DNA of 64,000 bases from a virus: positions 12,225 to 76,224 of the IMG/VR virus record IMGVR_UViG_3300046780_000464. One strand, given 5' to 3'. Below the pieces are notes generated by a model. The model made no database searches, had not been told where the DNA came from, and saw only the letters and a list, made by a program, of their open reading frames with translations. The position numbers and the translations under genes are program-made. Shown here piece after piece: positions 30,956 through 56,573 of the stretch. Position 1 is the first letter of the stretch; every line of letters begins with the position of its first letter.

Positions 30956-32125
30956 CTAGACACCAATCATTGAGACGACAGCTGCCGGCATCCGCACCAC
31001 TGTGCCCCAAGTACCTGCACTGACCTTCTGAGAGAAGGACGAACGAGCGCGAATAACAGGGTGAGCCCGCATTTTTTCCGAGTACGCCGGAAAGGCAAAC
31101 TTCTGACCTTCAACTTCATTGGCGAACAGCTGTACAAACTCGCCAGCTGCCACACCTTGCGGCATGATTGGTCCACGAGCCGCATATTGCGGGATCGTAA
31201 TCAGCTTGATATTGCCAAAGTTCTTGTCGATCAGGTCACGCACATTGACACCGAAGCTGTTGGTGATCGTCAGGGCGACTTGTGAACCAGGCGACATTGC
31301 CAAGGTCATTGATGTATCCGTGTCGATCAACCCACCGGTCTGCAAGACCAGTTGGTAGAATAGTGTCTCAATGTCGGCATAGACCTCGTTTGCCGTGGCG
31401 TTCATGACCCCATTGATGATCCAACGTGGGCTGTTGCCAGTCGCTGCCTTTGGCGCAGGGCTGAGGGCTGCAGTCAGATTGGGATCATTGGTCATGCCAT
31501 AGTTCTGGAGCCCACCAACACCAAACAGGTAGGCAAGGTTCATGAACTTGGCAATAGTCTGGGCTGCTGCACGATCGATCTCAGATACCCAGTTGACGCG
31601 GGCAAGACCACCGCGCTCTACTTCCCGCTCACCATACTCTTTGATGACCTGGAAGAGGTAGTTTTGCCTAGCCGGCCACCCAACATTGATCCCGGCGTTG
31701 CCGTTCTCATTGTAGTCGCCATAGCTAGACACTTCACCAGTCGCCTCGACGACCGGGAAGTAGATGATGTCTTGCAGCCAATCACCACGCTTGACTTCAC
31801 CACCAAGCGCTTCCGCTGCCTTGTTCGGGCTGAACAAGATACGAAAGACCTCGGGGTCAATAGTCGTAGTAAGCAGGGCGGGGATTGCCGAGTTCGGGTC
31901 AGTATATAGTGGAGGCGGTGCATCCATCGCCATACTATTATGGCCGTATCCACCATAACCCCAAGAATCCTGGGCCATCTGGAGCATCTCGTCCTGGGCC
32001 AGTTGTGGGTTGTTCTTCCAAGACTCCGGCGTGTATGCCGTAATCGCGGGAAGATATACACCACGATTTTCCCATTCCGCACGATCAGCCGACCAGGCAG
32101 CCCGCGCACCACTAAAATTTTGCAT
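30956..32125 (-). CDS. Major capsid protein (DUF2184-like, HK97 fold) with a probably cleaved N-terminal propeptide
   Basis: AMDAPPPLYTDPNSAIPALLTTTIDPEV...KRGDW...FPVVEATGEVSSYGDY...RQNYLFQ...YGEREVERGG; high-GC3 codon use. Confidence 0.92.
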   Translation of the reverse strand: MQNFSGARAAWSADRAEWENRGVYLPAITAYTPESWKNNPQLAQDEMLQMAQDSWGYGGYGHNSMAMDAPPPLYTDPNSAIPALLTTTIDPEVFRILFSPNKAAEALGGEVKRGDWLQDIIYFPVVEATGEVSSYGDYNENGNAGINVGWPARQNYLFQVIKEYGEREVERGGLARVNWVSEIDRAAAQTIAKFMNLAYLFGVGGLQNYGMTNDPNLTAALSPAPKAATGNSPRWIINGVMNATANEVYADIETLFYQLVLQTGGLIDTDTSMTLAMSPGSQVALTITNSFGVNVRDLIDKNFGNIKLITIPQYAARGPIMPQGVAAGEFVQLFANEVEGQKFAFPAYSEKMRAHPVIRARSSFSQKVSAGTWGTVVRMPAAVVSMIGV

Positions 32126-33219: not shown

Positions 33220-34917
33220 TTACTGAATAGTGATGTTCTTGGTGAAGTCGAACCGCTCAGCGAACGAGCCACCTTCAATCTTGGCGTCCGCTGCCATGCG
33301 CGGGCCACCCTGATTGGGACGACGGGCGCCGGGGCGAGGCTGCGCTTCAAGCACAGGCAACAAGGCATCCGGATGCATCTTGTCGACCTTCTTGGCGTCC
33401 ATACCGAGTGCCTTTAGGGCGGTACGGTAAACATCGGACGGCCGAGCAGCATCCATGGCCAGGTCACCAACCCAAGGACGAACAAAGCGCTCAGCTGCGC
33501 GAATGTTCTTCTGGGTCTGGACAGTACGAGCAACAGCGCGCTTGATTGCCGCGTCCATTGCCGTCTTTGTCACCGGCTCGGATTGCTCAGAGGGGACGAC
33601 TTCATCCTCCGCTGCCTTCTTTTTGGGATTGCCTTCTTCGTCAAGCTCCTCTTCCTCTTCGTCGCTCACGCAATCTTCGAGCTCGTTCTCGTCCATACCG
33701 CCAATGGCGGTCGGGGGCGGAATTTCACTGGGCATACCTTGATCTCCTCCGTTTCCATTGGGGTCTTTACTCTGTTGCTGCTCACCGCCACCACCACCAT
33801 TGTCAGGAGGAGGAGCGCCGACGCCTCCACTGAGGTCAGGATCAGGATTGCCTTCCTCAGCGAGAAATGCGTCAAGGTTCTGCAAGATCTCGGGCGATAC
33901 CCCTTCTTGCTCAAGGTATGCCTTAATCTTTGCTACAACATCTTCGGGGTCACCATCTTCCTCTGTCTGTGCACCCATAGGCGGCCCAGCATTGGGCTCC
34001 GTCTGCATGGGCGGCGGCCCACCCTGAGGCATCCCACCACCCATCTCAGCATCTGCCATACCAGCAGAAGGAGACAATGCGTCCAAAAGGTTGGCTAAAT
34101 CCTGGATATCAGCATCCTTGGCCAACTTGCCTTTGGTCGCATACTTGACCGTCTTGATGATGTCGGTCTTTCTGCTGTTAAAGTTCTTTGACGTAACTCC
34201 ACGCACAATGGAGTTATAGTCAAGGGGTGCAGCATCTTGAGCGAGGCGCGGTGTGAGATAGGTAAGCAGAGCACCTTTGGCAACCATAGCTGCCGGCGCT
34301 AGTTTCGGCATAGCGGGACTCCTTTCCTTAAGAGCAGCATCTTGGACGACAACATCGGCACCAGCCCTGCCATCCTCTACTAGGGCAACATGATTACCAC
34401 GTATGTTAGTCATAATCCCATCGTAGTGTTGACCCTCATACATACCAGGCTGCATTAAAGGGTCGTAATGGTAAGCACAAGACAGTTCCTTTTGCTCACC
34501 ATCCTCAATTGCGTCAATTGCTGGCTTGGTCCAAAAGACCAAACTATTCTTTAGGTAAGGATGCTGATACATAGCATCAGTACCGGTAGAACCCACTACT
34601 AAATCAGCTGGATGCTTTTCTGAATTAACTGGTTGATGCTTTGCTAAGATTGGCAAGTTATTGAATGTTCTTGCAGCCTTTTGTAGTTCTTTGGGATGCC
34701 TTAACAACCAATACTTTCTAGCGGGGTCAAGACCAAGTCTCTCAAAATCCGGAATCTCTTCACCCCAATATGGATTAACCGTTGCCTTAGATATGTTTGA
34801 CATCCCGACGTGCATATGCCCATCTTCACTAACCCTGCGCACAGATGGGTTTTGATCCATCGCAATAGGACTGGATTGCGACTTGAGTGGGTTAAATGCT
34901 CCAACCATTGCGATCAT
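33220..34917 (-). CDS. Prohead protease (DUF2213-like) fused to an acidic scaffolding region
   Basis: [14 protein letters not shown]...LRHPKEL...FNNLPIL..H...KELSCAY.YD...[12 protein letters not shown]; acidic Gly/Pro-rich C-terminus. Confidence 0.9.
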
Positions 34918-39801: not shown

Positions 39802-40185
39802 TTATGCGTTCCCAGCAGTAACACTAAAACTGGTAACGGTCACCGTCTGACCAGACGTAATCGAGGTATTGTTAAGTACAAGATCGGTGGCGACATTCCC
39901 CTGAATATGGCAGGTACCGGCAGCGTCATACATTCGAAAGCTTGAAGCAGTACCAGTTGCAGCGGCACTAACAGTCCAAGCACCAGCAATAGTTGTCACA
40001 CCAGCAACAGAGGTTAGAAAGGTCGCTGGAAGTGCAATCGTTGCCACAGGTCCAGCAGGATCAGCCGCAGTACAGCTCGCTGGCTCGGCACCCGTAAATA
40101 TCTTCAATAAACCAGCTGTGCCGATAGACGTTTGGATTTGGCCAATCTGGTTATTGCGTAAGGCCGTGCCGTATTGAAACGTCAT
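39802..40185 (-). CDS. Small beta-rich virion protein of the type that precedes repeat fibres
   Basis: LRNNQ...IGTAGLLKIFTGAEPA...AAATGTASSFRMYD...IQGNV...LVLNNTSITSGQTVTVTSF. Confidence 0.65.
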   Translation of the reverse strand: MTFQYGTALRNNQIGQIQTSIGTAGLLKIFTGAEPASCTAADPAGPVATIALPATFLTSVAGVTTIAGAWTVSAAATGTASSFRMYDAAGTCHIQGNVATDLVLNNTSITSGQTVTVTSFSVTAGNA

Positions 40186-41944
40186 GGTCTAGTTCCTTTT
40201 CCTCAGGGACACAAAACAGGTTTAGAGAAACCAAGTTATTGTGTCCAATAACATAAGGTGGATGATGCTGATAAATTCGATAATTCATCTCTCTGAGTAA
40301 GGCATGTAAACGTTCACGTTTATCTTCTCGATCATCTTCTAAATACAAGTAAGGTCTATGCTCTGAAATAAGAGGCCATGCCCCCATCAATACGTTCCAC
40401 TCCATACCCTCAACATCGGCTTTGATTAGTTTTAGATTAGTAACTAAATGCCTTAAATCAACTAACATCATCATAGTAATCTTCTGACCTGAACTACCCG
40501 CAGGCAGCATTGAAATGCCACCAAAATTAACACCCAATGCTTGATAATCAACAATTGGAACAACACAACTTCCGACTTCAGAACCGGCAGCGGCATTGAT
40601 TGCCTGAACATTAGAAATATCATTAAGAGCAAGATTACCACACAAAGTGTTAAACAACGTGGTTTGAGGTTCTATAGCAATAACAGACCTACACATTCTA
40701 GCTAGTGGAATAGTGTGACAGCCGATATTCGCACCAACTTCAATAACGCAATCATCTGGTTGTAAAATCTGTCTAAACAGATCAACTTCACCCTCGGAAT
40801 ATTCACCATGTTCAGAGAGAAACTTACCCATATAAGGGTCACCAGGAAAGTAAATCAGACGTCCATGCTTGTAAGTACAAATATCGGTACTCTGTTTCGG
40901 TGACGCTGTAGTAACCGACACTGTTCCCGTGGCCAACAACTTATGTGCCTCCTGCACAATAGACTTAACCGATATATCACTAATACAAGCTGCGCCTGTT
41001 TGCTCTTCGTTCTGCCTGCATGTTACCATATTATCATGTAGTCGATGACAAGGCCAACAATCAACTCTATTGACATCGGCGTGTAGAGTTGATGTTCTCA
41101 CCCAATATTTAGTAATGTTCTCAGGGGAAGCATGGGATAACATTACAATCTTTGGCATGTCACGCATAGCGCAGGCCCACAATACACCAGTATCTGGACC
41201 AATAACCAAGTCAGCCTGTTGTGCAAATGTCAAACTGCGTCTAATCGGCCATTCGTCACCAGGTTCAGTGATTGCTCTTCTTAATCCGTTAGCATCCCCA
41301 TTTATCTTAATCAGATCAGCTCGAATTAGATTAGCTAGTTCTAGTTCACGCGACGATCCCATCAATACTACTGGAAGTTTTATTTCCTGTATTAGCTTGG
41401 CAATGATTGATGGTGCATAAGGATGTATCTTATCACACCGCGTACCTTTAATCACCCAGGCAATAAAGTGACCACCAATTTTCTGTTTGATTGCTTGGGC
41501 ATCAGAGACTTCTTCTTTAGTTGGGTAGAAAGCAGGCGCTATTTCATCATAAGGAATTAGTGCAATATCATGTGCTACTTCTAGATAAGAACGATTAGCG
41601 ATCTTGTGTCTAGCCTCTTTGGGCCACTGGAACTGATATTGGCTAGAAAAGAATGCCTGCTGAAACTCAATCGAATGTGACAAGTTTATATAGAATTCAA
41701 ATTCCTTTGATCTAATCCAGTGCCAATTAGGACCACTTTCAAGAGGAATGTCTTCCGGAGCATGTACAGATAACTTGTCAATGTAAGGATTATTTTCAAA
41801 TACTACATGATGTGGTGATGCACTGATTACTTCAACATGCCCATAACGCTTCTTAAGTCCCGGTAAAACCGAAGAGGTTACAATATTGTCACCAATACCA
41901 CCACCACGGGTGACACCGGCCCATCCCTTATTACCAATAACCAT
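40151..41944 (-). CDS. GT9-like glycosyltransferase fused to an FkbM-family SAM methyltransferase
   Basis: N-terminal RGGGIGDNIV...L..LKKRY; DLVIGPDTGVLWACAM..MPKIVML (GT-B, GT9); C-terminal VIEVGANIGCHT...IAIEPQ...LIKADVEGMEWNVL.G...RPYLYLE (FkbM). Confidence 0.85.
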   Translation of the reverse strand: MVIGNKGWAGVTRGGGIGDNIVTSSVLPGLKKRYGHVEVISASPHHVVFENNPYIDKLSVHAPEDIPLESGPNWHWIRSKEFEFYINLSHSIEFQQAFFSSQYQFQWPKEARHKIANRSYLEVAHDIALIPYDEIAPAFYPTKEEVSDAQAIKQKIGGHFIAWVIKGTRCDKIHPYAPSIIAKLIQEIKLPVVLMGSSRELELANLIRADLIKINGDANGLRRAITEPGDEWPIRRSLTFAQQADLVIGPDTGVLWACAMRDMPKIVMLSHASPENITKYWVRTSTLHADVNRVDCWPCHRLHDNMVTCRQNEEQTGAACISDISVKSIVQEAHKLLATGTVSVTTASPKQSTDICTYKHGRLIYFPGDPYMGKFLSEHGEYSEGEVDLFRQILQPDDCVIEVGANIGCHTIPLARMCRSVIAIEPQTTLFNTLCGNLALNDISNVQAINAAAGSEVGSCVVPIVDYQALGVNFGGISMLPAGSSGQKITMMMLVDLRHLVTNLKLIKADVEGMEWNVLMGAWPLISEHRPYLYLEDDREDKRERLHALLREMNYRIYQHHPPYVIGHNNLVSLNLFCVPEEKELDHDVSIRHGLTQ

Positions 41945-41949
41945 TCTAA

Positions 41950-42195
41950 CTATATCTTTCTAAAATGAGGACTTTTCCAACCGGAATCTTCTGCTTCGTC
42001 TTCGTCAGTATCTTCTTCGTCATCTTCTTTATCTTCGTCGTTGTCTTCACTATCATCAGCAACTAACCACTTTATCTCACCATCATCAAACAAGATCTTG
42101 ACTATAGTTGCATCATCACGCTCTGCTGGTGCCATATCTTCATCAAGATATACCACTGATGCAGGACGCCCATCTATTTCACGATGTTCAATCAT
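41950..42195 (-). CDS. Small protein with an acidic tail
   Basis: 81 aa; ATGA coupling to the upstream gene; D/E-rich C-terminus. Confidence 0.65.
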   Translation of the reverse strand: MIEHREIDGRPASVVYLDEDMAPAERDDATIVKILFDDGEIKWLVADDSEDNDEDKEDDEEDTDEDEAEDSGWKSPHFRKI

Positions 42196-44204
42196 TTCTG
42201 TATCTTTGGTACATTCGGGAATCTCTCTAAAATCGCCTTATAAACCTTCTTCCAAGGGTTAGGATCCCTATACCAAATTGGTAAATCTTTCTCGTTCAAT
42301 ATACCTTCCCAATCTAATGCAGCCATTTCAGCTAAAGTCTCATGAATTGGCAATCTAGTACTGGAAGTGTGACCATCCTCGTATGACTTCCACCAATCCC
42401 GACTATAATCAGTCAATCCATCATGCTTCTGTAATGCAGAAGCAGGCATAAGTCCAATTGCGGCATAAGTGGGATAATCCCTGTTGACCTCTTCAATTGA
42501 GAGATCATTAGGATAGATCTCAGCCCTTTTCTTATGGAATTCAGCTTGTTCCTTCTCATATTGTCGCTTAACCGCTTCCCACTTTTGATGCATTACTTCA
42601 TGAGCTGTAACTGCGCAAATAGAGCGACTACTAACGTTCTTTTGATAAATCTTAATAATCCCTGTATTCAGGAAAGCATGACCAGCAACCCTAAACCTAC
42701 GACCATTCAATCTATCGGTTGGCGTTGCCTTGCTTATCTTGATCTTCTTATCAGGATAATCTAATTCCTCAGCGACCAAGCTCTTTACTTCCTTCGCTTC
42801 CTCATCAGTTAAACGATGACTGAGACTAATGGAAGCCTTAGTTGCCATCTCACTAGATTCTTTTAAGTGATCAAACGTATGCTGAAGTTCAGTATCAAGT
42901 TCCTCCGGTTGAATAACCTTCGTACCCTTCCATTCCCTTAATCTAAACTCTGATGGGCGCCCCCACGAACCGCCACTTATATCTATCGCTATATTGGCAT
43001 TCTTAAATGCTTCTATTGTTTGCGCTTCAACGGTATGATAATAACCCATTGGATCAATGATCTGCTTAATCCTTTCCCTTGGAGTTAGAGTCTTCTTCTT
43101 GATTGCCTTTTCTGTTTGCTTTGATTCCGTACCAGTATCTACTGGACCACCACCATGACCATGCACCCTTTGTAAGAATTCCGCAATACCCTTCTGGCCA
43201 ATAATCAGCTTTGAAGGTTTACCTGTGGGTGGCAGATGTTTGATTGCATTGCTATTCCCACTCATTCCGATAAAACCGACATGATGCCCTGTTTCCGGAT
43301 GGTGGTATATTTCTGTTTTAGAGAAATCAGGATGCTCTATATACCCTGCATCCTTCAACTGCTTTATCAATTTAGGTGAAGCACTACCTTTCTTGGCGAA
43401 CTTGCCAGTCTTGTCTCTAGGATGCACTTCTTCTGACCAGGTACCTTCTGGTGCATCATAGGCAAGAAGGTTCGGTAAACGACAAAATAGAAATTGCCTA
43501 AGTGCTGCATCCTGTGCGGGATTCTTGAATTCAGCGTCTTCACCAGGCTCCCGATACCTATCACGCTCGGCCTGTAGTTGATACAATTGTTGAATAATAT
43601 TTGAAGGCATGTTTCGAGCAAGTTCTAAAATATCAGGGTCTAGTGGGACGGGATCTTCGTCCTCTGCAATATCTTTCAACTTCTCTAATGATGCCTTTAC
43701 TCCTGGATGAAGTGGTTCAGGTAATTCATTCAATCCACGCCAAAGATAAGCTGAATGTTCACTGTTTAATGTAGGTTCAAATTCATCCTCTACCGGACAA
43801 GCAAAAGTAGTATGATCCCAACCAAATGGTGTGCGTTTAGTCTCTACTTTAATCCACTGACCATCATCTTCTGGACAATGACCAAGTTCTTCTTCACATT
43901 CACGACGGACCGCATCATACTCACCCTCACCCTCATCAACCTTACCACCGGGCCAGGACCAAGTATCAGCCCAATTTTCTTCTGATGCTGATCGTTTTAC
44001 AAATAGGACCTTATTTTGTGGGGTAAAGAATGCTACACTTGCCGCCTTACCTTTAGGTTCATCCGGGGCTGCATCCCCATAATTACAGCAAACATCTAAA
44101 TCATACTTATCTTTTCTCTGTTTAGCGCTCTCATCAAACGCTAATGACAGGAGCGGCAGCCTTCCAATCAGGTATTCCCTAAGGCCAGTCGTCATCAAAC
44201 TCAC
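42192..44204 (-). CDS. Multi-domain protein: NUDIX hydrolase, linker modules and an HExxH zinc metallopeptidase
   Basis: Nudix box GKVDEGEGEYDAVRRECEEELG fits GX5EX7REUXEEXG; VAGHAF...TAHEVMHQ...HETLAE; HPRDKTGKF tag; probable start ATG 44195. Confidence 0.85.
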   Translation of the reverse strand: MSLMTTGLREYLIGRLPLLSLAFDESAKQRKDKYDLDVCCNYGDAAPDEPKGKAASVAFFTPQNKVLFVKRSASEENWADTWSWPGGKVDEGEGEYDAVRRECEEELGHCPEDDGQWIKVETKRTPFGWDHTTFACPVEDEFEPTLNSEHSAYLWRGLNELPEPLHPGVKASLEKLKDIAEDEDPVPLDPDILELARNMPSNIIQQLYQLQAERDRYREPGEDAEFKNPAQDAALRQFLFCRLPNLLAYDAPEGTWSEEVHPRDKTGKFAKKGSASPKLIKQLKDAGYIEHPDFSKTEIYHHPETGHHVGFIGMSGNSNAIKHLPPTGKPSKLIIGQKGIAEFLQRVHGHGGGPVDTGTESKQTEKAIKKKTLTPRERIKQIIDPMGYYHTVEAQTIEAFKNANIAIDISGGSWGRPSEFRLREWKGTKVIQPEELDTELQHTFDHLKESSEMATKASISLSHRLTDEEAKEVKSLVAEELDYPDKKIKISKATPTDRLNGRRFRVAGHAFLNTGIIKIYQKNVSSRSICAVTAHEVMHQKWEAVKRQYEKEQAEFHKKRAEIYPNDLSIEEVNRDYPTYAAIGLMPASALQKHDGLTDYSRDWWKSYEDGHTSSTRLPIHETLAEMAALDWEGILNEKDLPIWYRDPNPWKKVYKAILERFPNVPKIQK

Positions 44205-45204: not shown

Positions 45205-45615
45205 TTAAGTTCTGGCCGATGGAGTTGGAGTCGGACCGGTCGGAACGGCAACAACAACCCATCCAGTCACTGGCGTCCAAGCCGTCTTGACTTCCCACTG
45301 AAGCGTGGGCGTTGGGGGTGTGGGTGTCGGCACTGGGGGCAGCACAATCGGATGCTCTGGGCGGACATAGCCGATGTCTACATCAATGCCCCAACCCGGA
45401 TCGACCGGACCCTCTGGCGGCGGTTCGATGGGAACGGTGGGAGGTGGGAGAACGATCGGATGGGTCGGACGAAGGTAACCCAGTCCAAGATCGATACCGT
45501 AACCTGGATCAACCGGCGGATCTCCACCGGGCATTGGACCGCCACCGATTTCCAGTGACGGGTCGATTGCCGCGACGACAACGGTTTCGCCGGGCCTCAG
45601 TTTAATGGCAGGCAT
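45205..45615 (-). CDS. Proline-rich protein with two PVDPG(Y/W)GID...RPxHPIVLPP repeats
   Basis: ATG 45615 behind GGAG; internal duplication is visible in the protein. Confidence 0.65.
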   Translation of the reverse strand: MPAIKLRPGETVVVAAIDPSLEIGGGPMPGGDPPVDPGYGIDLGLGYLRPTHPIVLPPPTVPIEPPPEGPVDPGWGIDVDIGYVRPEHPIVLPPVPTPTPPTPTLQWEVKTAWTPVTGWVVVAVPTGPTPTPSART

Positions 45616-45759
45616 TCGCTTTACTCCACTGTGATTAGGATAAGGCAAGAGAACCGGGGCAAGTTACACTTTTGTCAGAAAGGAGACCACCCCGGTTCTC
45701 GCCTTGACAACTAGTGCCAAGCTCTATATTAAAGAATGATTGCTGCGGAATTATGGCGA

Positions 45760-47247
45760 TTAAAAGACTGGACCACCTTTAGAGATGGTATTCGCCTTGT
45801 TGACCGCGGTAGTTGCACCCTTTACAATACTAGCACCAATACCGTCTCTGGATGGCTTGGGCCTAAGCCTATTTGCTGACTCACCTGAACGTTCAAATGC
45901 TGCACGCTTATTTCCAGCCGCAGTGCGACGCTCTGACGATGACGGTTGATGCGGACGAATAGTTGCCCCTTTTGTAAACTCCTCAGGACTCAGTATTTGA
46001 TGACCACCCTTTTGCGGTCCACTACCTGGACCACCGTCCTTCCCACCAAAGCGAGGACTATTCCAGCCATTACCTTGATTGCCCATCGATCCGCCCTGCA
46101 TGGTATCATCTTTAGACATTAGTGGAGCAGCCTTTCTAATTGCTGCTCTAACAGCATTCTCAGGCCAGGTTGGATGAGCTTCACTCCTTGAAGTACTGGG
46201 GCCAGTTTGGACTGTGGCAACATGACTCCCTACACCACGTCCAATCCCACCCTTGGACAACGACAATGTCGCCCCACTAGGATGCGACCAACTCTCATGT
46301 CCACGTTCATTAGGTCCTGAATAACTAAAACCAGCCTTTGTTGCTTCTTGGTGGGCCTTAGCCAATTGCTTGTTTGCAGGTGCAGATGAGGCAGAGGCAG
46401 ATCCACCACCTTGCGGCCCACTACCTGGACCACCATCCTTTGCCTTTTGAGGTGGAATTGTAGGAGACGACCAACCATTGCCTTGATAACCCATCGAACC
46501 ACCCTTCATGGTGTCATCACGGCTGGTTTCACCAGCAGTATATTTGAGCAAGTTCCCAAGTGCTGTTCCACCCTCACCATTACCAAGAGGAGGTTTCCCA
46601 TTATCGCCAGGATTTCCACTACGAGTACTTGGATCAATCTTTGGACTCTTCCACATACCTGTTGGTGTCATGGGCTTGGAAACGGGATCCTTGGGTACGG
46701 TAACTTCTGGTTTCAAGCTTGCAGCAGAGTCATTTTGACCATCAGAAAACAAAATCCGCATAACGTCATCAATACTGTGTTGATTACCGGTCTGATTATC
46801 AATAACATATTGACCGTCGGGTGACAATGAAAACCGACCATTTTGATCATCTATAGCAGGCTTTTCTTGTCTTTCCCCTATTGCTGTACGAGTATAATAC
46901 GCACCATCCTTTGCCTTTTGTTGCAATTTCCCACCGGGGTCGGCATTCATAAACTCTTTACCAACCGATTGGGGAATGCCAAGTGTAGAATTACCACCAG
47001 CCGCAGCACCCATTGCACCACGTTGCGCTTCACTGACAGGAGGATCCGTTGCCATACCATTCGGATCAGCGTAATGATGCTCCGTTACCGTCTTTACTTT
47101 CAACAGTGGCGGTTGCTCATCATTAGCTTGATCACCCACTTCATCGTGCTCCTCTTCCTCACCCTCTTCATTGATCCAGGACAACAGTCCTCGAGCAAAG
47201 TTTCTCATTTGGCTTAAGAACTCGGGGCTGGTCTGATCGAACGCCAT
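45760..47247 (-). CDS. Gly/Ser/Lys-rich multi-module protein with repeated xxD boundaries (putative internal head polyprotein)
   Basis: AFD, AND, ATD, AKD x2, SRD x2, SKD, GKD; duplicated DDTM(K/Q)GGSMG.QGNGW.SP...KDGGPGSGPQ; 30-bp near-exact DNA repeat at 46012-46041 and 46411-46440. Confidence 0.7.
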   Translation of the reverse strand: MAFDQTSPEFLSQMRNFARGLLSWINEEGEEEEHDEVGDQANDEQPPLLKVKTVTEHHYADPNGMATDPPVSEAQRGAMGAAAGGNSTLGIPQSVGKEFMNADPGGKLQQKAKDGAYYTRTAIGERQEKPAIDDQNGRFSLSPDGQYVIDNQTGNQHSIDDVMRILFSDGQNDSAASLKPEVTVPKDPVSKPMTPTGMWKSPKIDPSTRSGNPGDNGKPPLGNGEGGTALGNLLKYTAGETSRDDTMKGGSMGYQGNGWSSPTIPPQKAKDGGPGSGPQGGGSASASSAPANKQLAKAHQEATKAGFSYSGPNERGHESWSHPSGATLSLSKGGIGRGVGSHVATVQTGPSTSRSEAHPTWPENAVRAAIRKAAPLMSKDDTMQGGSMGNQGNGWNSPRFGGKDGGPGSGPQKGGHQILSPEEFTKGATIRPHQPSSSERRTAAGNKRAAFERSGESANRLRPKPSRDGIGASIVKGATTAVNKANTISKGGPVF

Positions 47248-48310: not shown

Positions 48311-48614
48311 ACCAATCCGGTCGATTTAGACTTGGCTTGACGAAGGGTTTCTTACGTGTATCCACCCAATTTTGATAAGCACCAGGTACGCTGCCCGATT
48401 TTCTACTTTTTCGGCGGACATAGTTAACTAACGTCTTTTCCTCACGCAGCCTGGTAATTCGAGTTCGTATACTCCCATACTCTCGATCAAATGCTTTCAT
48501 CAATGCAATAATGACTTTCTTTTGTGTCAACCCTTGTTCCATCCCATCATTTATCGCCTTGATTAGAATTTCGTCTTGTTCTGCTGTCCAAATCGATTGA
48601 ATCCCCTTATGCAT
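48267..48614 (-). CDS. Myb/GcrA-like helix-turn-helix protein
   Basis: IWTAEQDEILIKAI..G....KVIIALM....REYGSIRTRITRL; basic C-terminus; probable start ATG 48614. Confidence 0.55.
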   Translation of the reverse strand: MHKGIQSIWTAEQDEILIKAINDGMEQGLTQKKVIIALMKAFDREYGSIRTRITRLREEKTLVNYVRRKSRKSGSVPGAYQNWVDTRKKPFVKPSLNRPDWFDKENLQERILAGR

Positions 48615-48804
48615 CTTCTTCCTCTGTGGTTTCGGGTTCTTCCACGTCATCCCAATCAAGTTCATCAGGGTCAAAACCCATGATGTCTATCCAGTCTTGA
48701 CTAACTGGAGCATCCTCATCAACCTCTTCCTCCCGCTCCTCGTCAGTTGGCAAATCAGCATGATTGCCATATTCACCATAGGAAGGTTGAGGAAGTGGTG
48801 CCAT
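48607..48804 (-). CDS. Small acidic protein
   Basis: 65 aa, D/E-rich; TAATG coupling to the portal gene. Confidence 0.6.
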   Translation of the reverse strand: MAPLPQPSYGEYGNHADLPTDEEREEEVDEDAPVSQDWIDIMGFDPDELDWDDVEEPETTEEEDA

Positions 48805-51542
48805 TATCTCCAGCCTGAGAACACGATCGGATTAATATACGATCGCAAGGCGACATCTGGTGTATTGCCTAGCTTTTTCGATACTGCCAATGCAACCTGT
48901 TGGCAGGCCTTCTTAAAAGCTGCATCATCACCGGGTGGGGGTGCACGCATCTTTGATATTACTTCGTTTGCAGTCTTGTTAGCAAACAACGTCCTAAAAT
49001 CCTTAGGCTTGCCTAAACCCTTTGTAATATGTTTTGTGTAATCCCGCAAGGATTGATCATTGATCTTCGTGAACAACTTACCCTGATTTTCCCCTGCCAT
49101 CTTGCGCAGAGAGGCGGCAAGTTCGGGATCTTCAACTGGTAAGTTTAACGAGACACCCTTCTTACCTGTAAATCTCAAAAATGTCTTATCCCCCTCAGTC
49201 TTGACAAACTTACCTTGTAATGTAGTCGCACCATAAGCCTGCTTTTCAGCCCCTGTATCTCGTTCACTACCCGGCCTTAGGCCCATCTGCATGATTATAC
49301 CAAGACATGTAGCATGTTCACGGGTTCGACCATCCCAGGCAGTCAAATTCTTATCATTTTCTTCCTTGTACTCCGGCATATGTGGGGTTAACTTTAATTC
49401 AAGCTCAAACTTTTTTGCATCCTGAGAATCTCTGTACTCCTGATGGAATAGTGGTTGAATACGACCCTTAGAGTCTTTACCACCCGCTAGTTGACCCCTA
49501 GCGTTAGGATCCATATTGATTCTAACATCAGTCCAGGCTGGTGGGATCTTAAAGTCTTTGGCATGTTCTGGCCAATCTTCTTTATTGGCCGGAGCAGGAG
49601 TTAGACTGTAATACCCAACGGTTGATTCTTTCTTAGGTTTGGCAGTGGTAGTTGCTTTCTTTGCAGCAGGCTTTGCAGTCTGTGCCTTAGCTGCAGGCTT
49701 TGCTGGTGCGGCGGCTGTAGCTGCCGATGCACCAGAACCTTTACTTACAAACTGACCACCTTTACCACCACTAGTACCTTCAGGTGCATGTGGATGGTCT
49801 TTAGGATCAAAGCCAGCGTCTGCCGCTACCTTAGCATTCAATAGATCAACTAATTTCTGATTATTATCATTACTATTGTCACCAGGAGCGCCTCCGCCCG
49901 GGGCCAGGGGAACAGCCGGTCGTTTAGGAGGCGCTGCACCAGGTGGCCCAGCGGCAGGTGATGGTGGACCACCACCCGGTGGTCCGCCTGGCCCTCCTGG
50001 TTGTGATGCAGCACCTGGTGGTTGTGGGGCACCAGGTACACCAGGAGGCTGTGGTGGAGCAGGAAGTTCTTTTGTTAGGTCTACACCATCAAATGGACTA
50101 TCCGGATCCTGAGCAAGAGAATCACGTACCTCTTGTGGATCAACTGCACCCATACCATAGTAAGTTTCTCTGGTTGCAGCCTTTACTTGCTCTCTCTGAA
50201 CAATCTCTTCAGGCTTCTCTTGTCTTAGTGGCTTAAAGTCAAACGTAATATCATCGTCCACTTCATCAAACTCGCTTAACTGAATAAGGTCAATAATCTT
50301 GGTCAGATTGGGCCGGTACAATACTTCCTGAAATGCCGCAATCCAGTCTTCAAAAGAAACCAGTTCACCCTCGCTACTTGCATTCAATCCAGCAGGCTGA
50401 ATGCCCAACAACTTAACCAGTGGAATACGGGCAATCGCCGCCATATGTTCTTGAGATTGTGCTTGTAAGGAATCCAGTCCACCAAGTGGAGCACTAACAT
50501 TACTAAAATCTTCAGCGTCCTTATCAATGACCATTGCGCCTTGGTTATTCTTGATATTGTTAAATAACGCGACACGGGCAAATAGTGCATCCCCACCCAC
50601 ACCAGTGGTGGCGTCCATATTGGTTTTCAATACACTGTGTGAAAAGTTCTGAATCAAGTCACTGACACTCTGTCTTGTCCTTAACCAATTGTCGACATAG
50701 GGCTTGAGCATTTGAGACATGCTTAACCCGCCAAAAGCATAGGCGGGTTTCAAGATGTCCGGCATTTCTCGACCAACAAATGTCAGCAACCGTGAGCGAT
50801 GTACCTCGCGCGACATTACAAACCAAGTGATTGGGTTATACCAATCAGGGCTCAGTGGATCAACCGAGTCATACCGGGTAGGATAACACCAAGTGGGCTC
50901 TACCGGCAAGACTCTAATCAGCTTTTGCGCTTTACCACTATTTGACGAACCAACCTTCTGTTTACTCAACAGATTGCGACCATCACCTAAATCTAGCCTT
51001 AACTCTTCGTCATCGTGAGTTTTGCCGGTGTCTAGGTATAAATGACCGCGACCAAAGAAACCATCAGCCTCTGTTGCTTTTTGAAATGCCTTTCTAATCC
51101 TAAGGTTGTCCATCTTGTCATTGATTTTCTTGATCTTGTCTGACTTGCTTTCATCACCACTGGCGGCCTTTAACTCAATCCACTCACGAGTCATTTCAGA
51201 AGCAATAACTTCTGTAACCACCCGGTACTCTGGGCGTTGTGATAGACTAGCCAGGTAGGCATAGCCCATAAACACAACGCCTTCAGCATAAGCTGTGGCA
51301 ATAAAGTCTCTGGACGCCCAACCAAAGGTTCCAGATATTGTTTCATCCATCGCCAGTGTTGGAATATCGCGCTCTTTTAGCGCGTTTTCAACTGCTGGCG
51401 GGAAGCTCGGTACTTCAAATGGACTACGAGTTGCTACTGAAGGCCGCCTAATCATGGCTGACTTAGCCAGAACCTCAGACGGTATTATCTTTACCGGGTT
51501 CTTTGTTTCCGATACTTGCTTGAGATCGGTAACTTCAGCCAA
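48804..51542 (-). CDS. Portal protein (DUF1073-like) fused to a C-terminal type IB DNA topoisomerase domain
   Basis: Portal motifs: FMGYAYLASLSQRPEYR...SEMTREWI, PDILKPAYAFGGLSMSQ, IPLVKLLGIQPAGLNASSEGE. TopIB motifs: IPPAWTDV, GKDSKGRIQ, LRPG (R756), FTGKKG (K794), KDFRT (R850), LGNTP (N893), RSYI (Y902). TTG start. Confidence 0.92.
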   Translation of the reverse strand: MAEVTDLKQVSETKNPVKIIPSEVLAKSAMIRRPSVATRSPFEVPSFPPAVENALKERDIPTLAMDETISGTFGWASRDFIATAYAEGVVFMGYAYLASLSQRPEYRVVTEVIASEMTREWIELKAASGDESKSDKIKKINDKMDNLRIRKAFQKATEADGFFGRGHLYLDTGKTHDDEELRLDLGDGRNLLSKQKVGSSNSGKAQKLIRVLPVEPTWCYPTRYDSVDPLSPDWYNPITWFVMSREVHRSRLLTFVGREMPDILKPAYAFGGLSMSQMLKPYVDNWLRTRQSVSDLIQNFSHSVLKTNMDATTGVGGDALFARVALFNNIKNNQGAMVIDKDAEDFSNVSAPLGGLDSLQAQSQEHMAAIARIPLVKLLGIQPAGLNASSEGELVSFEDWIAAFQEVLYRPNLTKIIDLIQLSEFDEVDDDITFDFKPLRQEKPEEIVQREQVKAATRETYYGMGAVDPQEVRDSLAQDPDSPFDGVDLTKELPAPPQPPGVPGAPQPPGAASQPGGPGGPPGGGPPSPAAGPPGAAPPKRPAVPLAPGGGAPGDNSNDNNQKLVDLLNAKVAADAGFDPKDHPHAPEGTSGGKGGQFVSKGSGASAATAAAPAKPAAKAQTAKPAAKKATTTAKPKKESTVGYYSLTPAPANKEDWPEHAKDFKIPPAWTDVRINMDPNARGQLAGGKDSKGRIQPLFHQEYRDSQDAKKFELELKLTPHMPEYKEENDKNLTAWDGRTREHATCLGIIMQMGLRPGSERDTGAEKQAYGATTLQGKFVKTEGDKTFLRFTGKKGVSLNLPVEDPELAASLRKMAGENQGKLFTKINDQSLRDYTKHITKGLGKPKDFRTLFANKTANEVISKMRAPPPGDDAAFKKACQQVALAVSKKLGNTPDVALRSYINPIVFSGWR

Positions 51543-51704
51543 CTAGAGGTGTCCTCCGAAGATCAAGACTAGTAGAACAATTATCAATAACAAAACCCCA
51601 AATGATGGGTAATAACCATAGTTGTAAGGTGCCATATGCCCCCAATTAGGCAACCCACCTACAAGCAGTAGGATTAGTATAACTAGAAGAATAATGCCAA
51701 GCAT
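51543..51704 (-). CDS. DUF3309-like small membrane protein (absent from the ORF track)
   Basis: Hand translation MLGIILLVILILLLVGGLPNWGHMAPYNYGYYPSFGVLLLIIVLLVLIFGGHL. Confidence 0.75.
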   Translation of the reverse strand: MLGIILLVILILLLVGGLPNWGHMAPYNYGYYPSFGVLLLIIVLLVLIFGGHL

Positions 51705-51879: not shown

Positions 51880-52818
51880 TCATCGGACGCGCCTAGCACA
51901 GATGTAACCCTGAACATTCGAAGTACCGCCACCACCAAAAGACGTCTCTCCTACCAGATAAATGGTAAGAGGTACCGCAGTGTTAGCACGGCATTGTCCA
52001 GTCATCAATACCTGCCGCGCCCCGGATGTCAGCGCCGTTGTATAAAACAACGTCATAATGCCAACACCCACGTACAGATCGTTGTCAGTCGGCAGCGAGT
52101 TATCATTCAAACTAATACTGCCACAAATCATATTTGGACTTTTATTGGAGGGAGGTCGAAAGTCAACACAACCCCACATTTCCCAGCAGCCAGGAGTCAA
52201 AGTGATCTGAGTAATCGTTGAGGGCAGATCCGAAGTAACTACAATACCAGTTTGATTAGCCGATACAATGTATTCACCAATCTCACCCGGCTGCGCATCA
52301 GATCCGTCGTTTATCCCCATAAGTTTTGAGGTATTTGGAACAAGTAATAGATTATCAGAACCTAATACAGCTAAGTTACCACCATCCGTACTAACTTCTG
52401 TTGGTCCAGGAATGCCTTGTGGTCCGGTATCACCAGTTGGCCCTGGAGGTCCGGTATCACCAGTAGCACCTTGTGGTCCGGTATCACCAGTTGGCCCTGG
52501 AGGTCCTTGCACACCAGGTGGTCCTGCTACAACTGTTGTATAGGCTTGCTCAAAAGCAAGCTTCGGCTCCCAATACATAGTTTGTTCTGGGTCTGGATAG
52601 GCAACGAAGTAATCACCAATCGCAGGATCACCATTTGCAAAGAACATATCCGTAACGTCAATTGTTTCCGGAGTTCCTAGATTGTCAACGGTGACAGTTG
52701 CTGCCGACCGGCTGAAATCAGTAATCGGTGCGGCCTCAATTATACGGTAAGTCTGATAGAACATCGGCAGACCCAAATCGGGTCTGGGATCTTGTGGTGG
52801 GAGATCGGGCATAGACAT
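51880..52818 (-). CDS. Collagen-like (Gly-X-Y) repeat protein with N- and C-terminal globular domains
   Basis: [42 protein letters not shown]; C-terminal [17 protein letters not shown]. Confidence 0.75.
52415..52506. repeat. 38-bp exact direct repeat with a 54-nt period in the collagen tract
   Basis: ccttgtggtccggtatcaccagttggccctggaggtcc at 52415-52452 and 52469-52506. Confidence 0.9.
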
Positions 52819-53118: not shown

Positions 53119-53273
53119 GTCGGTTCCACAGTTTCCGGTGGGATAATCACAGTTCCCGACTTTTCAATACTTGCCTTCCATTCTAACAATTCCCGAATCG
53201 CCACTTCCATTTCATCAGGAGTCATGCGACCATGATGGCGAGGTTCCGGAGGTTGTTGTCTTGACTCTACCAT
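53115..53273 (-). CDS. 52-aa hypothetical protein (absent from the ORF track)
   Basis: Hand translation MVESRQQPPEPRHHGRMTPDEMEVAIRELLEWKASIEKSGTVIIPPETVEPT; fills the gap with overlaps at both ends. Confidence 0.6.
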   Translation of the reverse strand: MVESRQQPPEPRHHGRMTPDEMEVAIRELLEWKASIEKSGTVIIPPETVEPT

Positions 53274-54898
53274 CTCGGTCCGTGCATGTTGGAAGTTAGA
53301 TTAACCAAATCAACTGGCCGTCTAGCAACTATGGTTTCAGACATTGCTAATACCTTGGGATCTATATTCAAGGTCTGCCGCTTGCTGAGCATTATGTGCA
53401 TCACTCCGGCCACAACATTAGCTAGATCGTCGTGAGTACCGGGAGAGTGATCGATTGTCTCGTGACCACCACGTGAGATTCGCCGGTCGAGTCCGAGCAA
53501 CTGGTTATAAAGGCGACTGTTATCAAGTAACTCACACCGTCCGGCGTTGACGATCGGTAGAAATGCAACGTAAATGTCGGATTTACTAGCCTTAGAGACA
53601 TTATATTCAACACCCTTTATTCTAAATCTTTCCCTGGGCCACTCACCAGCATAGTGGTCACCAACTACCCTAAAGACCCGATAAGTATGTAATACTGAAA
53701 CAAACTCTTCAACCACCGCTTCCGGTGAGAATTGTGGTCTACGCTCTCTCAATACATCAAGTACACCACGTTTAGTCTGAGGATCAATATGGCCAATTGC
53801 CAGGGTCATACTATCACTGGAACCACCACTAGGATCTACAAATCCGTAATAACGCATCCCCATTTCATATGGTAGTTCATGTAATCCGCGGGTGGTTACA
53901 CTATCAATTGCCTCTTTCGTGATAAAGGCATCAACATCAGATCTAAATTCGGCACCATATTCCGCGGCAGCACTATAGGGGTCTTCTTCGTACTTTTCAT
54001 CAATAAACGTTTGTGGTACCGTAGGATTCATTATTCTTGTAGCAGCACGCCAAATCAGAGGACCTTCATCTTTACCAAAGTACCTTTCAAAGTTATTCCA
54101 CAATACACCACGGCGAGCGTATGGGGATGAAGCGCCCAACAATAGTGCATTTGGGATGGTGGCCATTGCCGGCTCAAGGGCGGCGATAATTTCTGTATCA
54201 GGATTTGCCGAAGACTCGTCACTATGCCAAAAAGCAATCTCATCACACAATGCCGCAATAATGGTTCTTGACCGGACTGCTCTATAACTAGCTGTGCCAA
54301 CTTCAACTAAGATATTACCATGAAATAGAACAGATTCGGCGTTCTCTGTCTTGACTCTGGTCTTCAATTTCGGATGATCTAGAAAGGCTTTAACATAACC
54401 CATGATTACTCGAGCTTGTCGACGGTCTGCTGCCAATACAAGTAGTACACCCAGTTCCCCGGGGTCCAGATAATGAGACCAATCATAACAACAACCCAAA
54501 TACACAGCAATAGCAGCAAGTATACGAGACTTCCCGCCGCGACGACCGACCGGCATCCAGACCCGTGACGATTTCTTCGTAGGCTGGTCAATAAGATCAG
54601 TGCAGTCTCTAAAGATCTGGTATTCTTCATTTTCTTCAAATGGAATGGCGAATACAGTACCAACAAAAGAACGCCAGGAAGTCCAATTACTACCGTACCA
54701 ATCAGGAATTATTTCAGCAATGAAATCATGTGGTCTACCCGCATAGGAGTAGGCCCACTTCAAATCTACATCAGGTTCCTTTATCAACTGTAACTTTGGA
54801 ATTACCCTGTCTTTCAAACTGACATAGGTATCCAGCGCCAAATCTTCCAGACGGCGCCGGTTATGTGGTAATGTTTGATGTCTAGTCTTGGTAGGCAT
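53267..54898 (-). CDS. terL: Terminase large subunit
   Basis: Walker A VGRRGGKS, Walker B ALCDEIAF, coupling motif ASSP, RNase H-like nuclease GFVDPSGG...HDDLANV. Confidence 0.95.
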   Translation of the reverse strand: MPTKTRHQTLPHNRRRLEDLALDTYVSLKDRVIPKLQLIKEPDVDLKWAYSYAGRPHDFIAEIIPDWYGSNWTSWRSFVGTVFAIPFEENEEYQIFRDCTDLIDQPTKKSSRVWMPVGRRGGKSRILAAIAVYLGCCYDWSHYLDPGELGVLLVLAADRRQARVIMGYVKAFLDHPKLKTRVKTENAESVLFHGNILVEVGTASYRAVRSRTIIAALCDEIAFWHSDESSANPDTEIIAALEPAMATIPNALLLGASSPYARRGVLWNNFERYFGKDEGPLIWRAATRIMNPTVPQTFIDEKYEEDPYSAAAEYGAEFRSDVDAFITKEAIDSVTTRGLHELPYEMGMRYYGFVDPSGGSSDSMTLAIGHIDPQTKRGVLDVLRERRPQFSPEAVVEEFVSVLHTYRVFRVVGDHYAGEWPRERFRIKGVEYNVSKASKSDIYVAFLPIVNAGRCELLDNSRLYNQLLGLDRRISRGGHETIDHSPGTHDDLANVVAGVMHIMLSKRQTLNIDPKVLAMSETIVARRPVDLVNLTSNMHGPRW

Positions 54899-55054: not shown

Positions 55055-56032
55055 TTAATTCCCTCTTGAAAACTTTGGTAACCTACGTTGTGCCCCCGCA
55101 CCTTGTATCTCGTACTCTTCTTCCCCAAGCGTGATCATGTTAGCAATAAACATTTCAAGTTCATCAACAGACATTTTCCTGACTGTCTCTTCAAATTCTT
55201 CCTTTGTGCGGGGGAGGTTAATTGTGATTTCCCGCCGCTCAATACCCACTTGAGTGTCTCTTGCCAGTAATGTTAAGGCATGAGTCTTATCAATCGTCAT
55301 TACTTCGATTTTGTTATCACCAACCCTAACACCTTTGAATATCTTTTTGGCTGATTCCGAAAGGTATCTTGTATCGCAAACATACATCATCGGCTCGCCG
55401 ATACCATGGCATTGTGGGCAATCTGAATTGATTTCACGATTACGACTATACCCACTCCCACCCTTGATATCGACTTCTTTGCGGTTCTTACCAGCCACCC
55501 ATGCAGCAGTGGCATGTTTGAAGATCAAGGGACCAAATTCGTTTGTAATACAAGAAGAGGGCCAATTGTTTTCACCGTAGGACTGCGCCTGCTCAACATA
55601 ATACAATTCAGGGTCGGTGTACTGAAAGCGATTGCCTTCACCCCAACAATGCCTACAAGGCACTCGCCAAACACCGGTAATCTCGGTCGGATCACCTTCG
55701 TAAATATGTTTTAATTCACGACGAACATCAGCTGCGGTAACCGATGCCATCTCTGTAATAGTTTCAAGTCTTTCACGAATAGCACAACGAACACTAATCT
55801 CTTTCATCGCAATATCGAAATTCGAGAACCCCGACCGGGTGGCGCTTTGTTGTGGATTCTGACTAACAATCAATTCATCAACAAACTTGCGCTGGTGTGC
55901 GGGTAGTCTACTATAGAACCACAACGTCTGAGGGGAAGGCGGTAAATCATCAAAACGCATACGGGAGTAGGCACTGCTACTACCGTATTTTATATTCCTT
56001 TTTGGTTGTTTGATAGGAGGAGGGTTTGGCAC
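55055..56032 (-). CDS. terS: Terminase small subunit with an inserted CxxCxGxG zinc-finger pair
   Basis: HQRKFVDELI...NPQQSATRSGFS...VRCAIRER...VTAADVRREL; CRHCWGEG and CPQCHGIG; KIEVMTIDKTHALTLLAR; upstream of terL. Confidence 0.8.
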   Translation of the reverse strand: MPNPPPIKQPKRNIKYGSSSAYSRMRFDDLPPSPQTLWFYSRLPAHQRKFVDELIVSQNPQQSATRSGFSNFDIAMKEISVRCAIRERLETITEMASVTAADVRRELKHIYEGDPTEITGVWRVPCRHCWGEGNRFQYTDPELYYVEQAQSYGENNWPSSCITNEFGPLIFKHATAAWVAGKNRKEVDIKGGSGYSRNREINSDCPQCHGIGEPMMYVCDTRYLSESAKKIFKGVRVGDNKIEVMTIDKTHALTLLARDTQVGIERREITINLPRTKEEFEETVRKMSVDELEMFIANMITLGEEEYEIQGAGAQRRLPKFSRGN

Positions 56033-56538
56033 TATTCAAGCTCCACAATTTCTAAATCAGCACCAGCTTCGAATTCTACTATAATGTCTCGATTGAACAA
56101 ACTCATCAATAACCGAATTCTATCGTTTGAATTCATTGAAATAACAGTACCTATTTGATCAAAAAACGGGCTATCTTTAGTTTTTACTCTGACTATCGTA
56201 TCAACCGGTAAGACATTCCCACCAAACTTTGCTTGAATCTCATAAATTGTCTCGATATAAGTGGTGGCCACCCATAAAGGTCTTGGATCTAACTTGTTTC
56301 CTGTTAAAAGCCGAATAACCCCGTATGTATTTCCGGGTATTCCCCACTGCGTCTTATCTTCAAGAAAAACAAATCCGTAACAGGGAAATAACGGAGCGTC
56401 CTTAGGACCTCGTGCTCGGATAGATGGAAGTACGGGTTTGGTGTAGAACGGGCAAAACGCGTCTAGACCCTGTCGAGTCAGGTTCTCGACAGCTTTACGT
56501 TCCTGAGCACCATAAGTTTGAAAGCAAGCCCATGCCAT
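56032..56538 (-). CDS. NusG/RfaH-like transcription antiterminator (NGN plus KOW domains)
   Basis: WACFQTYGAQERKAVENLTRQGLDAFCPF...PLFPCYGFV...NTYGVIRLL; VRVKTKDSPFFDQIGTV...RIRLLMSLFNRDIIVE; probable start ATG 56538. Confidence 0.88.
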   Translation of the reverse strand: MAWACFQTYGAQERKAVENLTRQGLDAFCPFYTKPVLPSIRARGPKDAPLFPCYGFVFLEDKTQWGIPGNTYGVIRLLTGNKLDPRPLWVATTYIETIYEIQAKFGGNVLPVDTIVRVKTKDSPFFDQIGTVISMNSNDRIRLLMSLFNRDIIVEFEAGADLEIVELE

Positions 56539-56573
56539 CTGCTCTCCATTCCTCACTCCCGCAAGCACAGAGA

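Follow-up and report, generated by a model that had tools for sequence, protein, structure and literature searches.

A phage portal protein joined to a type IB topoisomerase, with a conserved tag and an acidic partner: a candidate capsid-loaded enzyme

The 64,000-nucleotide stretch analysed here (the window; positions 12,225 to 76,224 of IMG/VR virus record IMGVR_UViG_3300046780_000464) carries on its minus strand, at 48804..51542, a gene for a protein of 912 amino acids (aa) in which a phage portal domain is followed by a domain of the type IB topoisomerases (TopIB). An initial annotation of the locus, which did not give the strand, had proposed such a fusion in one uninterrupted open reading frame (ORF), and this frame is confirmed, with a TTG start and a TAA stop at 48804-48806. 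From the N-terminus, the protein consists of the portal domain (aa 56-490, delimited by PF06381 and phrog_146; 50073..51377), a Pro/Gly/Ala-rich linker without a family match (aa 491-572; 49827..50072), a short segment with the pattern AAD..F..HP....GQF..G.G that we refer to as the cargo tag (aa 573-606; 49725..49826), a basic Ala/Lys/Pro spacer with eight Lys or Arg against one Asp or Glu (aa 607-653; 49584..49724) and the TopIB domain (aa 654-912; 48807..49583), all encoded on the minus strand. Taken together, the 170 residues between positions 491 and 660 include 34 prolines, 33 alanines and 25 glycines.

The portal domain matches PF06381 (Phage_portal_3, formerly DUF1073) over aa 95-457 with an E-value of 6.6e-75 and the PHROG portal family phrog_146 over aa 56-500 with an E-value of 2e-101. 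According to a phmmer search of the PDB, the nearest solved portals are those of Pbunavirus gp19 (9b41 and 8fvh; E-values of about 1e-36, the best being 7e-37). The domain also gives a weak match to phrog_220, a family annotated as “minor head protein and DNA pilot”.

In the C-terminal part, PF01028 (Topoisom_I) aligns with aa 702-893 at 76.3 bits, compared to a cut-off of 23.7, and reaches 80.2 bits in a six-frame search. PF21338, the N-terminal domain of bacterial TopIB, is seen only over aa 662-684, corresponding to profile positions 22-44 of 49, and its 21.1 bits lie below the cut-off of 27. The protein ends 10 residues past Tyr-902. The domain is therefore a trimmed TopIB subtype, with a partial N-terminal domain and without a C-terminal tail after the tyrosine. 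All sequence motifs of the initial annotation lie where it had placed them, namely IPPAW at 666, AAD at 573-575, AKPAAKK at 623 and the catalytic residues Arg-756, Lys-794, Arg-850, Asn-893 and Tyr-902 (codons at 49275-49277, 49161-49163, 48993-48995, 48864-48866 and 48837-48839, minus strand), the latter with the spacings 38/56/43/9. These five residues pair with Arg-137, Lys-174, Arg-239, Asn-280 and Tyr-289 of the TopIB of Deinococcus radiodurans (2f4q; phmmer E-value 4e-16), which is the nearest solved topoisomerase by sequence. With its pentad complete, the domain is apparently active. An AlphaFold2 model of aa 640-912 (pLDDT 92.3) predicts the two-lobed clamp fold of a type IB topoisomerase, and its top Foldseek matches are the TopIB-DNA complexes of variola virus (3igc and 2h7f; TMq 0.80, E-value 2e-13), with the Deinococcus and human enzymes next. 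The matches to hidden Markov models (HMMs), the residue alignment and the fold model thus all bear out a fusion of a portal with a TopIB that has a complete pentad.

Could the join between the two domains be an assembly error that links two separate genes, or the gene be a pseudogene? The linker is of low complexity, and short-read graphs fragment there, with short Logan pieces between 49745 and 50634. Nevertheless, the same ORF is found on six independent long contigs: a separate JGI contig (L004) encodes a protein of 914 residues that is 99% identical, and the frame is likewise open in five IMG/VR contigs, each from a different metagenome (L005-L009). At least 24 soil or rhizosphere runs, drawn from 24 separate studies, also contain this stretch. 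Contigs from four further soil or rhizosphere runs, none of which is the likely source, tile positions 48500-51700 with zero joints or loose ends, and one contig covers 48500-50123, running from the TopIB domain across the entire linker into the last part of the portal domain. Moreover, 17 of the 20 natural single-nucleotide variants (SNVs) in the gene are synonymous and 3 are non-synonymous, and the sole indel is an in-frame TTT insertion at 49651, present in two of four independent metagenome runs, that adds one lysine to the basic spacer. The identical architecture is seen in 58 of 120 relatives. We consider the probability of an artefact negligible and reject this explanation on the strength of the independent contigs, the tiling by other runs and the SNV pattern; the continuity of the junction, about which the initial annotation was cautious, is intact. 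Because synonymous variants outnumber non-synonymous ones by 17 to 3, the gene appears to be under purifying selection. In the small ORF downstream, both natural variants are synonymous.

The cargo tag was delineated by aligning the 70 residues upstream of TopIB in 219 relatives. Its consensus, (R)ADAEFxExxHPRx(3-7)GxFxxxGG, is conserved whatever domain stands further upstream. In the numbering of the window protein, the consensus residues are Asp at 575 (166 of 219), Phe or Trp at 578 (157), Glu at 580 (154), His at 583 (146), Pro at 584 (171), Arg at 588 (162), Gly at 596 (204), Phe or Trp at 598 (188) and Gly at 604 (184). The copy in the portal-TopIB protein has diverged, with a proline in place of the glutamate (Pro-580), a glutamate in place of the arginine (Glu-588) and an insertion. 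The initial annotation had pointed to an “AAD site” with possible cleavage after Asp-575. This motif does match the conserved start of the tag and, because it coincides with the first conserved tag residues, it is a reasonable candidate processing site, with the cut itself retaining candidate status. In short standalone TopIBs the tag begins at about residue 21, and in multi-enzyme, polyvalent relatives it occurs up to five times, once ahead of each enzyme module (P0036, P0087 and P0049). The spacer between tag and TopIB is a short stretch of Ala, Gly, Ser, Pro and Lys that is net basic in 136 of 186 relatives; in the window protein it is long (47 residues) and strongly basic and contains the AKPAAKK tract.

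A tag HMM run against the whole genome retrieves two ORFs only, the portal gene and a gene at 42192..44204 on the minus strand. The latter encodes a second tagged cargo protein of 670 residues with a NUDIX domain at aa 52-170 and the tag at aa 256-269 (43398-43439, minus strand). Its C-terminal domain contains the motif HEVMH (42588-42602, minus strand), which is invariant in this protein and its homologues. Other phages have tagged versions of the HEVMH domain joined to PF06381 or PF06074 portals (P0334 and P0335). By its motif, the domain may be the zincin-like peptidase (“MPTase”) that cuts polyvalent proteins into units; it has no sequence match in the PDB, and Atlas feature matches to peptidase families serve as leads only.

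Directly downstream of the fusion gene lies a 65-residue ORF (48607..48804, minus strand) that the initial annotation of the locus had missed. Its ATG overlaps the portal stop codon (TAATG), and its product is highly acidic (pI 4.05), with 26 Asp or Glu residues vs. one Lys or Arg. It belongs to a conserved family, here called LGFDP after the end of its consensus LPDVHFG..DWR..(acidic run)..TPxDVVxxLGFDP, for which no match was found in Pfam, PHROG or the named Atlas clusters. We surveyed 60 distinct related genes that end in TopIB and have a callable next ORF. The next ORF is of the LGFDP family in 44 of them and starts between 19 nucleotides before the TopIB stop codon and a few tens of nucleotides after it; 31 of these ORFs encode short proteins, and the other 13 encode longer cargo proteins, often tagged, that begin with the module. 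Of 44 polypeptides that run on past TopIB, 15 contain the LGFDP module after it in cis, and the motif is absent from the 108,663 residues upstream of TopIB. The partner alone is predicted to be disordered (Atlas model pLDDT 0.39). A predicted complex of TopIB and partner scored 0.64, compared to 0.02 for the best control. Of 80 solved complexes, 58 attain such a score, as do 2 of 110 mismatched pairs; since our own alignments were used for the prediction, these counts calibrate it only roughly. The confident part of the predicted interface involves Arg-756, Pro-757, Arg-850, Thr-851, Asn-893 and Tyr-902, that is, the catalytic cleft, and the prediction thereby supports binding of the partner at this site.

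The fusion belongs to a large family. With the TopIB part as the query, phmmer was run exhaustively against 1.84 billion cluster representatives and gave 4,269 matches at E≤1e-3 and 844 at E≤1e-30. For comparison with cellular enzymes, 200 genomes of one bacterial class were sampled, of which nine contain a TopIB, and eight of these were used. The cellular enzymes score 48-94 bits against the window domain vs. approximately 197-290 bits for the phage clade, and at least 844 cluster representatives outscore every sampled cellular TopIB. Identity within the clade is 42-53%. The first four residues of the pentad (Arg, Lys, Arg, Asn) are conserved in 219 of 219 relatives and the tyrosine in 217, and TopIB is the C-terminal domain in 173 of the 219. 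Precomputed Pfam domains in the 120 best long relatives reveal a range of fusion partners: the PF06381 portal in 58, the Mu-type portal PF06074 in 4, the lambda-type portal PF05136 in 2, the head protein PF09979 in 3, MuF (PF04233) in 2, an ADP-ribosyltransferase (ART; PF03496) in 7 and NUDIX (PF00293) in 20. Across the relatives, TopIB is joined to ART, NUDIX, InPase and 2H-type domains. Short forms of the same clade, with 260-460 residues, are abundant, and in two contigs (L095 and L097) standalone tag-TopIB genes lie between the portal/MuF and the protease/major capsid protein genes. No characterised example of the portal-TopIB fusion was found, as first supposed, but the fusion is common in metagenomes, given its 58 occurrences among the 120 best long relatives and the 207 IMG/VR contigs that encode the clade.

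A FastTree phylogeny of 329 TopIB domains contains 43 changes of the portal-fused state, whereas shuffled labels give 67 on average and never fewer than 59. Portal fusion therefore appears clustered on the tree yet heavily interleaved, which at such divergence, where resolution is limited, is evidence of modularity only. The window protein represents one case of a mobile cassette with three parts: the short HPR-type tag, the trimmed TopIB and the acidic LGFDP partner. The cassette recurs in hundreds of uncultured phages, either standalone in head modules or on portals of three families, on MuF, on the head protein PF09979 and on ART or NUDIX proteins. Three loci display other arrangements of these parts. 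In one contig (L002, 6001-9267) portal, tag, TopIB, acidic module and InPase are contained in a single protein of 1,088 residues. In another (L001, 8990-12556) the acidic module is the N-terminus of a 1,188-residue NUDIX and ADP-ribosyltransferase protein that follows a portal-TopIB. In a third (L096, 4211-5391) a standalone tag-TopIB and its acidic partner stand amid non-structural genes (radical SAM, PD-(D/E)XK, dCTP deaminase-like), and therefore the cassette is not always located in a head module.

A search of 50,697 deposited phage records with the TopIB part yielded one weak match only, “top1E” of Bacteroides phage BS162P1, with 35% identity over half of the domain, and tblastn of the whole protein against cultured phages returned portal-only matches with at most 53% coverage. 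A one-pattern scan of 185,579 prokaryote species, with one genome per species, found only 10 loci, all of them in metagenome-assembled genomes (MAGs); these come from unrelated phyla, and the single-peptide pattern is uninformative on a host or prophage.

How does the cassette compare with known enzymes? The Deinococcus radiodurans TopIB (2f4q/3m4a) shares the Arg-Lys-Arg-Asn-Tyr pentad with Asn in fourth place, the IPPAW-type motif of the N-lobe and a PF01028 score above the cut-off. The sampled cellular enzymes differ in being free proteins with a longer and fuller N-lobe; the seven with readable tails keep 40-65 residues past the tyrosine, and none of the eight has a tag or an LGFDP ORF. 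The poxvirus enzymes of variola and vaccinia (2h7f, 3igc, 1a41) provide the best structural match, and they are likewise small viral TopIBs with late expression. They have His instead of Asn in the pentad, are 22% identical, and are free proteins without a known acidic partner. In poxviruses, TopIB is a component of the virion core and promotes early transcription.

Among phage structural proteins, gp19 of the Pbunaviruses (Pa193 and E217; 9b41 and 8fvh) is not only the nearest solved portal but also has a long C-terminal extension that is invisible in electron cryo-microscopy. The gp19 portal of Pa193 was modelled only for residues 94-528 of 765 (PMC11456595), so its extension after the barrel is flexible or removed. 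In the same solved virion, gp24, which is a PF09979 protein, is bound to the inside of the capsid (PMC11456595). The Pbunavirus head module resembles that of the window in having a PF09979 protein and the same type of major capsid protein. In contrast, portal extensions of this lineage carry an InPase-type domain (L095, L097 and BcepF1) and not TopIB.

Polyvalent proteins offer a close parallel. Iyer et al. 2017 (PMC5512222) described portal fusions to PBECR, 2H and InPase domains, with TopIB not among them. The portal-TopIB protein corresponds to their definition of a polyvalent protein, in that a carrier domain packaged in the head is fused to an effector enzyme in a phage of the terminase-portal type. 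Further likenesses are the location in a late module, the neighbouring cargo with a NUDIX domain and a candidate zincin-like domain and the same proposed logic of packaging, processing and injection. TopIB, an HPR-type tag and an acidic LGFDP partner are not described there; in that paper “topoisomerase” occurs only in a reference title and “HPR” is absent. Jamet et al. 2017 (PMC5576092) reported MuF polymorphic toxins with small downstream immunity ORFs in temperate phages and do not mention a topoisomerase. Here too, a head-associated carrier is followed by a C-terminal enzyme and a small ORF directly downstream; however, the carrier in the window is a PF06381 portal, and the enzyme and its partner are each one conserved family. 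A literature search for portal protein, topoisomerase IB and phage found no paper that combines them, in line with the initial annotation, which knew of no characterised fusion of this kind. Forterre and Gadelle 2009 (PMC2647321) proposed a “not yet discovered” group of viral TopIBs as the source of the bacterial ones, and the phage clade is a candidate for this group.

The source record is linear, 83,589 bp long and without a terminal repeat, with a GC content of 49% and a CheckV completeness of approximately 75%. The phage, an uncultured one from soil, is contractile-tailed (the record is that of a myovirus), and its head module is similar to that of Pbunavirus (PB1-like) phages. Nearly all late genes are carried on the minus strand, in the order terminase small subunit, terminase large subunit, two genes, portal-TopIB, acidic partner, cargo-like genes, protease and major capsid protein. 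Family scans identify the small terminase subunit at 55055..56032 and the large subunit at 53267..54898, and the two genes that separate the latter from the portal gene are a 99-residue ORF and a collagen-repeat gene. Further along the strand are a head maturation protease or scaffold-type protein (PF09979, phrog_2229; 33220..34917), which is a candidate processing enzyme, the major head protein (phrog_264; 30956..32125), a separate MuF gene (PF04233; 27274..28083), the tail sheath (22729..24228) and the tape measure (17751..20738), all on the minus strand. No second portal was seen among the other large ORFs scanned, which were a subset of the ORFs in this approximately 75% complete record.

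Portals are dodecamers, and their C-terminal barrel and crown face the capsid interior. TopIB needs neither ATP nor metal. We hypothesize that the fusion is a portal with a TopIB cargo in the capsid interior, which is kept silent or docked by its partner and delivered with the DNA as in poxvirus virions; on balance, we consider this the probable explanation, with the poxvirus TopIB as its nearest analogue. With the portal C-terminus pointing into the capsid, up to 12 copies of TopIB would be built into each head, and fusion to a portal, to MuF or to PF09979 would in each case be a way to put TopIB inside the head. The tag would act as a loading or processing signal common to the cargo modules, and its conserved start, A-x-D / F-x-E, would be a possible cut site for the head protease or the zincin. 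The acidic partner, made by translational coupling, would bind across the DNA-binding and catalytic cleft, and would hold TopIB away from DNA both in the cell that makes the phage and in the filled head, or else dock it in place, until ejection. On infection, TopIB would leave with the DNA and relax the incoming genome, the host chromosome or both without ATP or Mg, which could favour early transcription or switch off the host, in the way proposed for the virion-packaged poxvirus enzyme.

Of the two functions that the initial annotation had put forward, torsion relief at the portal agrees less well with the family evidence than does capsid cargo, which may be released and delivered. The reasons are that the same TopIB clade occurs without a portal (standalone or with MuF, PF09979, ART or NUDIX), that the tag ahead of TopIB punctuates multi-enzyme polyvalent proteins, and that a dedicated acidic partner predicted to sit on the active site follows. 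Several points weigh against delivery as cargo. Presence in the virion, cleavage, ejection and activity are all inferred, and portals are by far the commonest carrier, so that closeness to the DNA channel could matter. The tag of this protein is without its two most conserved charged residues and has an insertion, and therefore the portal may stay uncut if the tag is a cleavage site; the tag HMM, moreover, did not find the tag in the major capsid protein or the protease of this phage. The model of the HEVMH domain, the proposed and unconfirmed processing enzyme, is unusable at a pLDDT of 44.7. As for the partner, its pLDDT in the complex is only 58-65, the alignments were unpaired, and the controls included no acidic peptides of matching charge; in silico, any DNA-binding groove may accept a disordered peptide that is acidic. 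A more specific proposal, in which the three-part cassette is a self-silenced, virion-delivered enzyme, is tenable but doubtful in our view: the tag would mark the cargo for loading or cutting, the acidic module would be a DNA-mimicking plug until ejection, the freed enzyme would relax DNA in the infected cell, and the clade could also be the Forterre-Gadelle group. If this were true, type IB topoisomerases would gain in the acidic module their first dedicated protein inhibitor.

Would the enzyme instead work where the portal holds it? As a portal-tethered swivel, 12 attached TopIB domains would relax torsion during packaging or ejection. Such a role would suit the prevalence of portals as fusion partners (64 of 120 long relatives, from three unrelated portal families) and an enzyme that is independent of ATP and metal, and the degenerate tag of this copy may indeed go uncut. 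On the other hand, the same clade, tag and partner are also found standalone or on MuF, PF09979, ART and NUDIX proteins, a co-made partner predicted over the active site is hard to reconcile with an enzyme at work during assembly, a topoisomerase is in principle dispensable for linear DNA that has a free end, and the domain is placed towards the capsid interior, separated from the portal by a linker of 160 residues. We regard the swivel as unlikely, and as less likely than capsid cargo. The chemistry of TopIB, which yields a covalent protein-DNA link, would also permit the portal-linked enzyme to form a 3'-phosphotyrosyl bond near the genome end and so to anchor, protect or pilot the DNA, a role that the weak match to phrog_220 would agree with. 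This explanation seems to us highly improbable, as there is no evidence of specific end sequences on a contig without defined termini and the standalone and polyvalent contexts would be left unexplained.

The two-gene layout itself allows other interpretations of the partner. One is a toxin-immunity pair like those of phage polymorphic toxins, in which TopIB would damage the DNA of competing phages or cells and the acidic ORF would encode the immunity protein. The C-terminal domain is, however, one conserved enzyme (42-53% identity) and not a variable set of toxins, the partner family is conserved too, and the carrier is a portal, with MuF encoded by a separate gene. In addition, MuF toxins come from temperate phages, while this clade was met in 10 loci, all MAGs, in the scan of 185,579 species genomes. 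A toxin-immunity pair is thus quite improbable. The acidic module could also be no inhibitor at all but an integral subunit or docking adaptor that replaces the cellular C-terminal tail, or a handle that hangs the next cargo on TopIB for loading. In keeping with this, the phage-type TopIB stops 10 residues past the tyrosine vs. 40-65 more residues in the seven sampled cellular enzymes, the module lies just where this tail would be (within the same polypeptide in 15 of 44 cases), and in 13 of 44 loci it is the N-terminus of a longer, often tagged, cargo protein. The cellular tails contain basic linkers, though, while the partner is strongly acidic, and the predicted interface over the catalytic residues suggests occlusion; we therefore hold a subunit or adaptor to be possible but rather unlikely. 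An origin of the partner as the split-off C-terminal tail of a cellular TopIB is not supported by sequence, since hhalign finds no likeness between the partner family and cellular tails (probability 0.06), and the analogy is one of position only.

That enzymes are built into the phage head and delivered with the DNA is a known idea, exemplified by T4 Alt, MuF toxins and polyvalent proteins. To our knowledge, the only well-known TopIB packaged in a virion is the poxvirus enzyme, and no description of a topoisomerase as head cargo was found in the searched literature. The cassette is absent from cultured phage records, except for the one weak match among 50,697, and it is therefore missed by current model systems. 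Capsid-loaded TopIB would offer the possibility of ATP-independent DNA relaxation at the start of infection. Beyond this, the short conserved tag may be a general signal for cargo loading or processing, the small acidic protein may be a natural TopIB inhibitor, and the cassette bears on the origin of the patchily distributed bacterial and poxvirus-like TopIBs.

Several neighbouring genes deserve a brief description. No tRNAs were found in the window. The collagen-repeat protein (PF01391) encoded between terminase and portal (51880..52818, minus strand) has tail-fibre-like PHROG matches, and this is an odd place for a fibre-like gene. Between the portal and NUDIX genes lies a gene for a low-complexity protein of 495 residues without a family match (45760..47247, minus strand), which contains an internal duplication of approximately 40 residues (DDTM.GGSMG.QGNGW..P ... 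DGGPGSGPQ). A proline-rich protein of 147 residues (45205..45648, minus strand), also without a family match, has two copies of the repeat G(Y/W)GID..GY.RP.HPIVLPP. Within the head gene block, a 597-residue protein (40151..41944, minus strand) has a C-terminal FkbM-type methyltransferase domain. Finally, a 178-residue ORF is located directly upstream of the small terminase subunit (56032..56568, minus strand); its counterpart in the near-identical contig L004 (4984-5520) carries PF02357 (NusG), and therefore a NusG-like phage protein heads the late genes.

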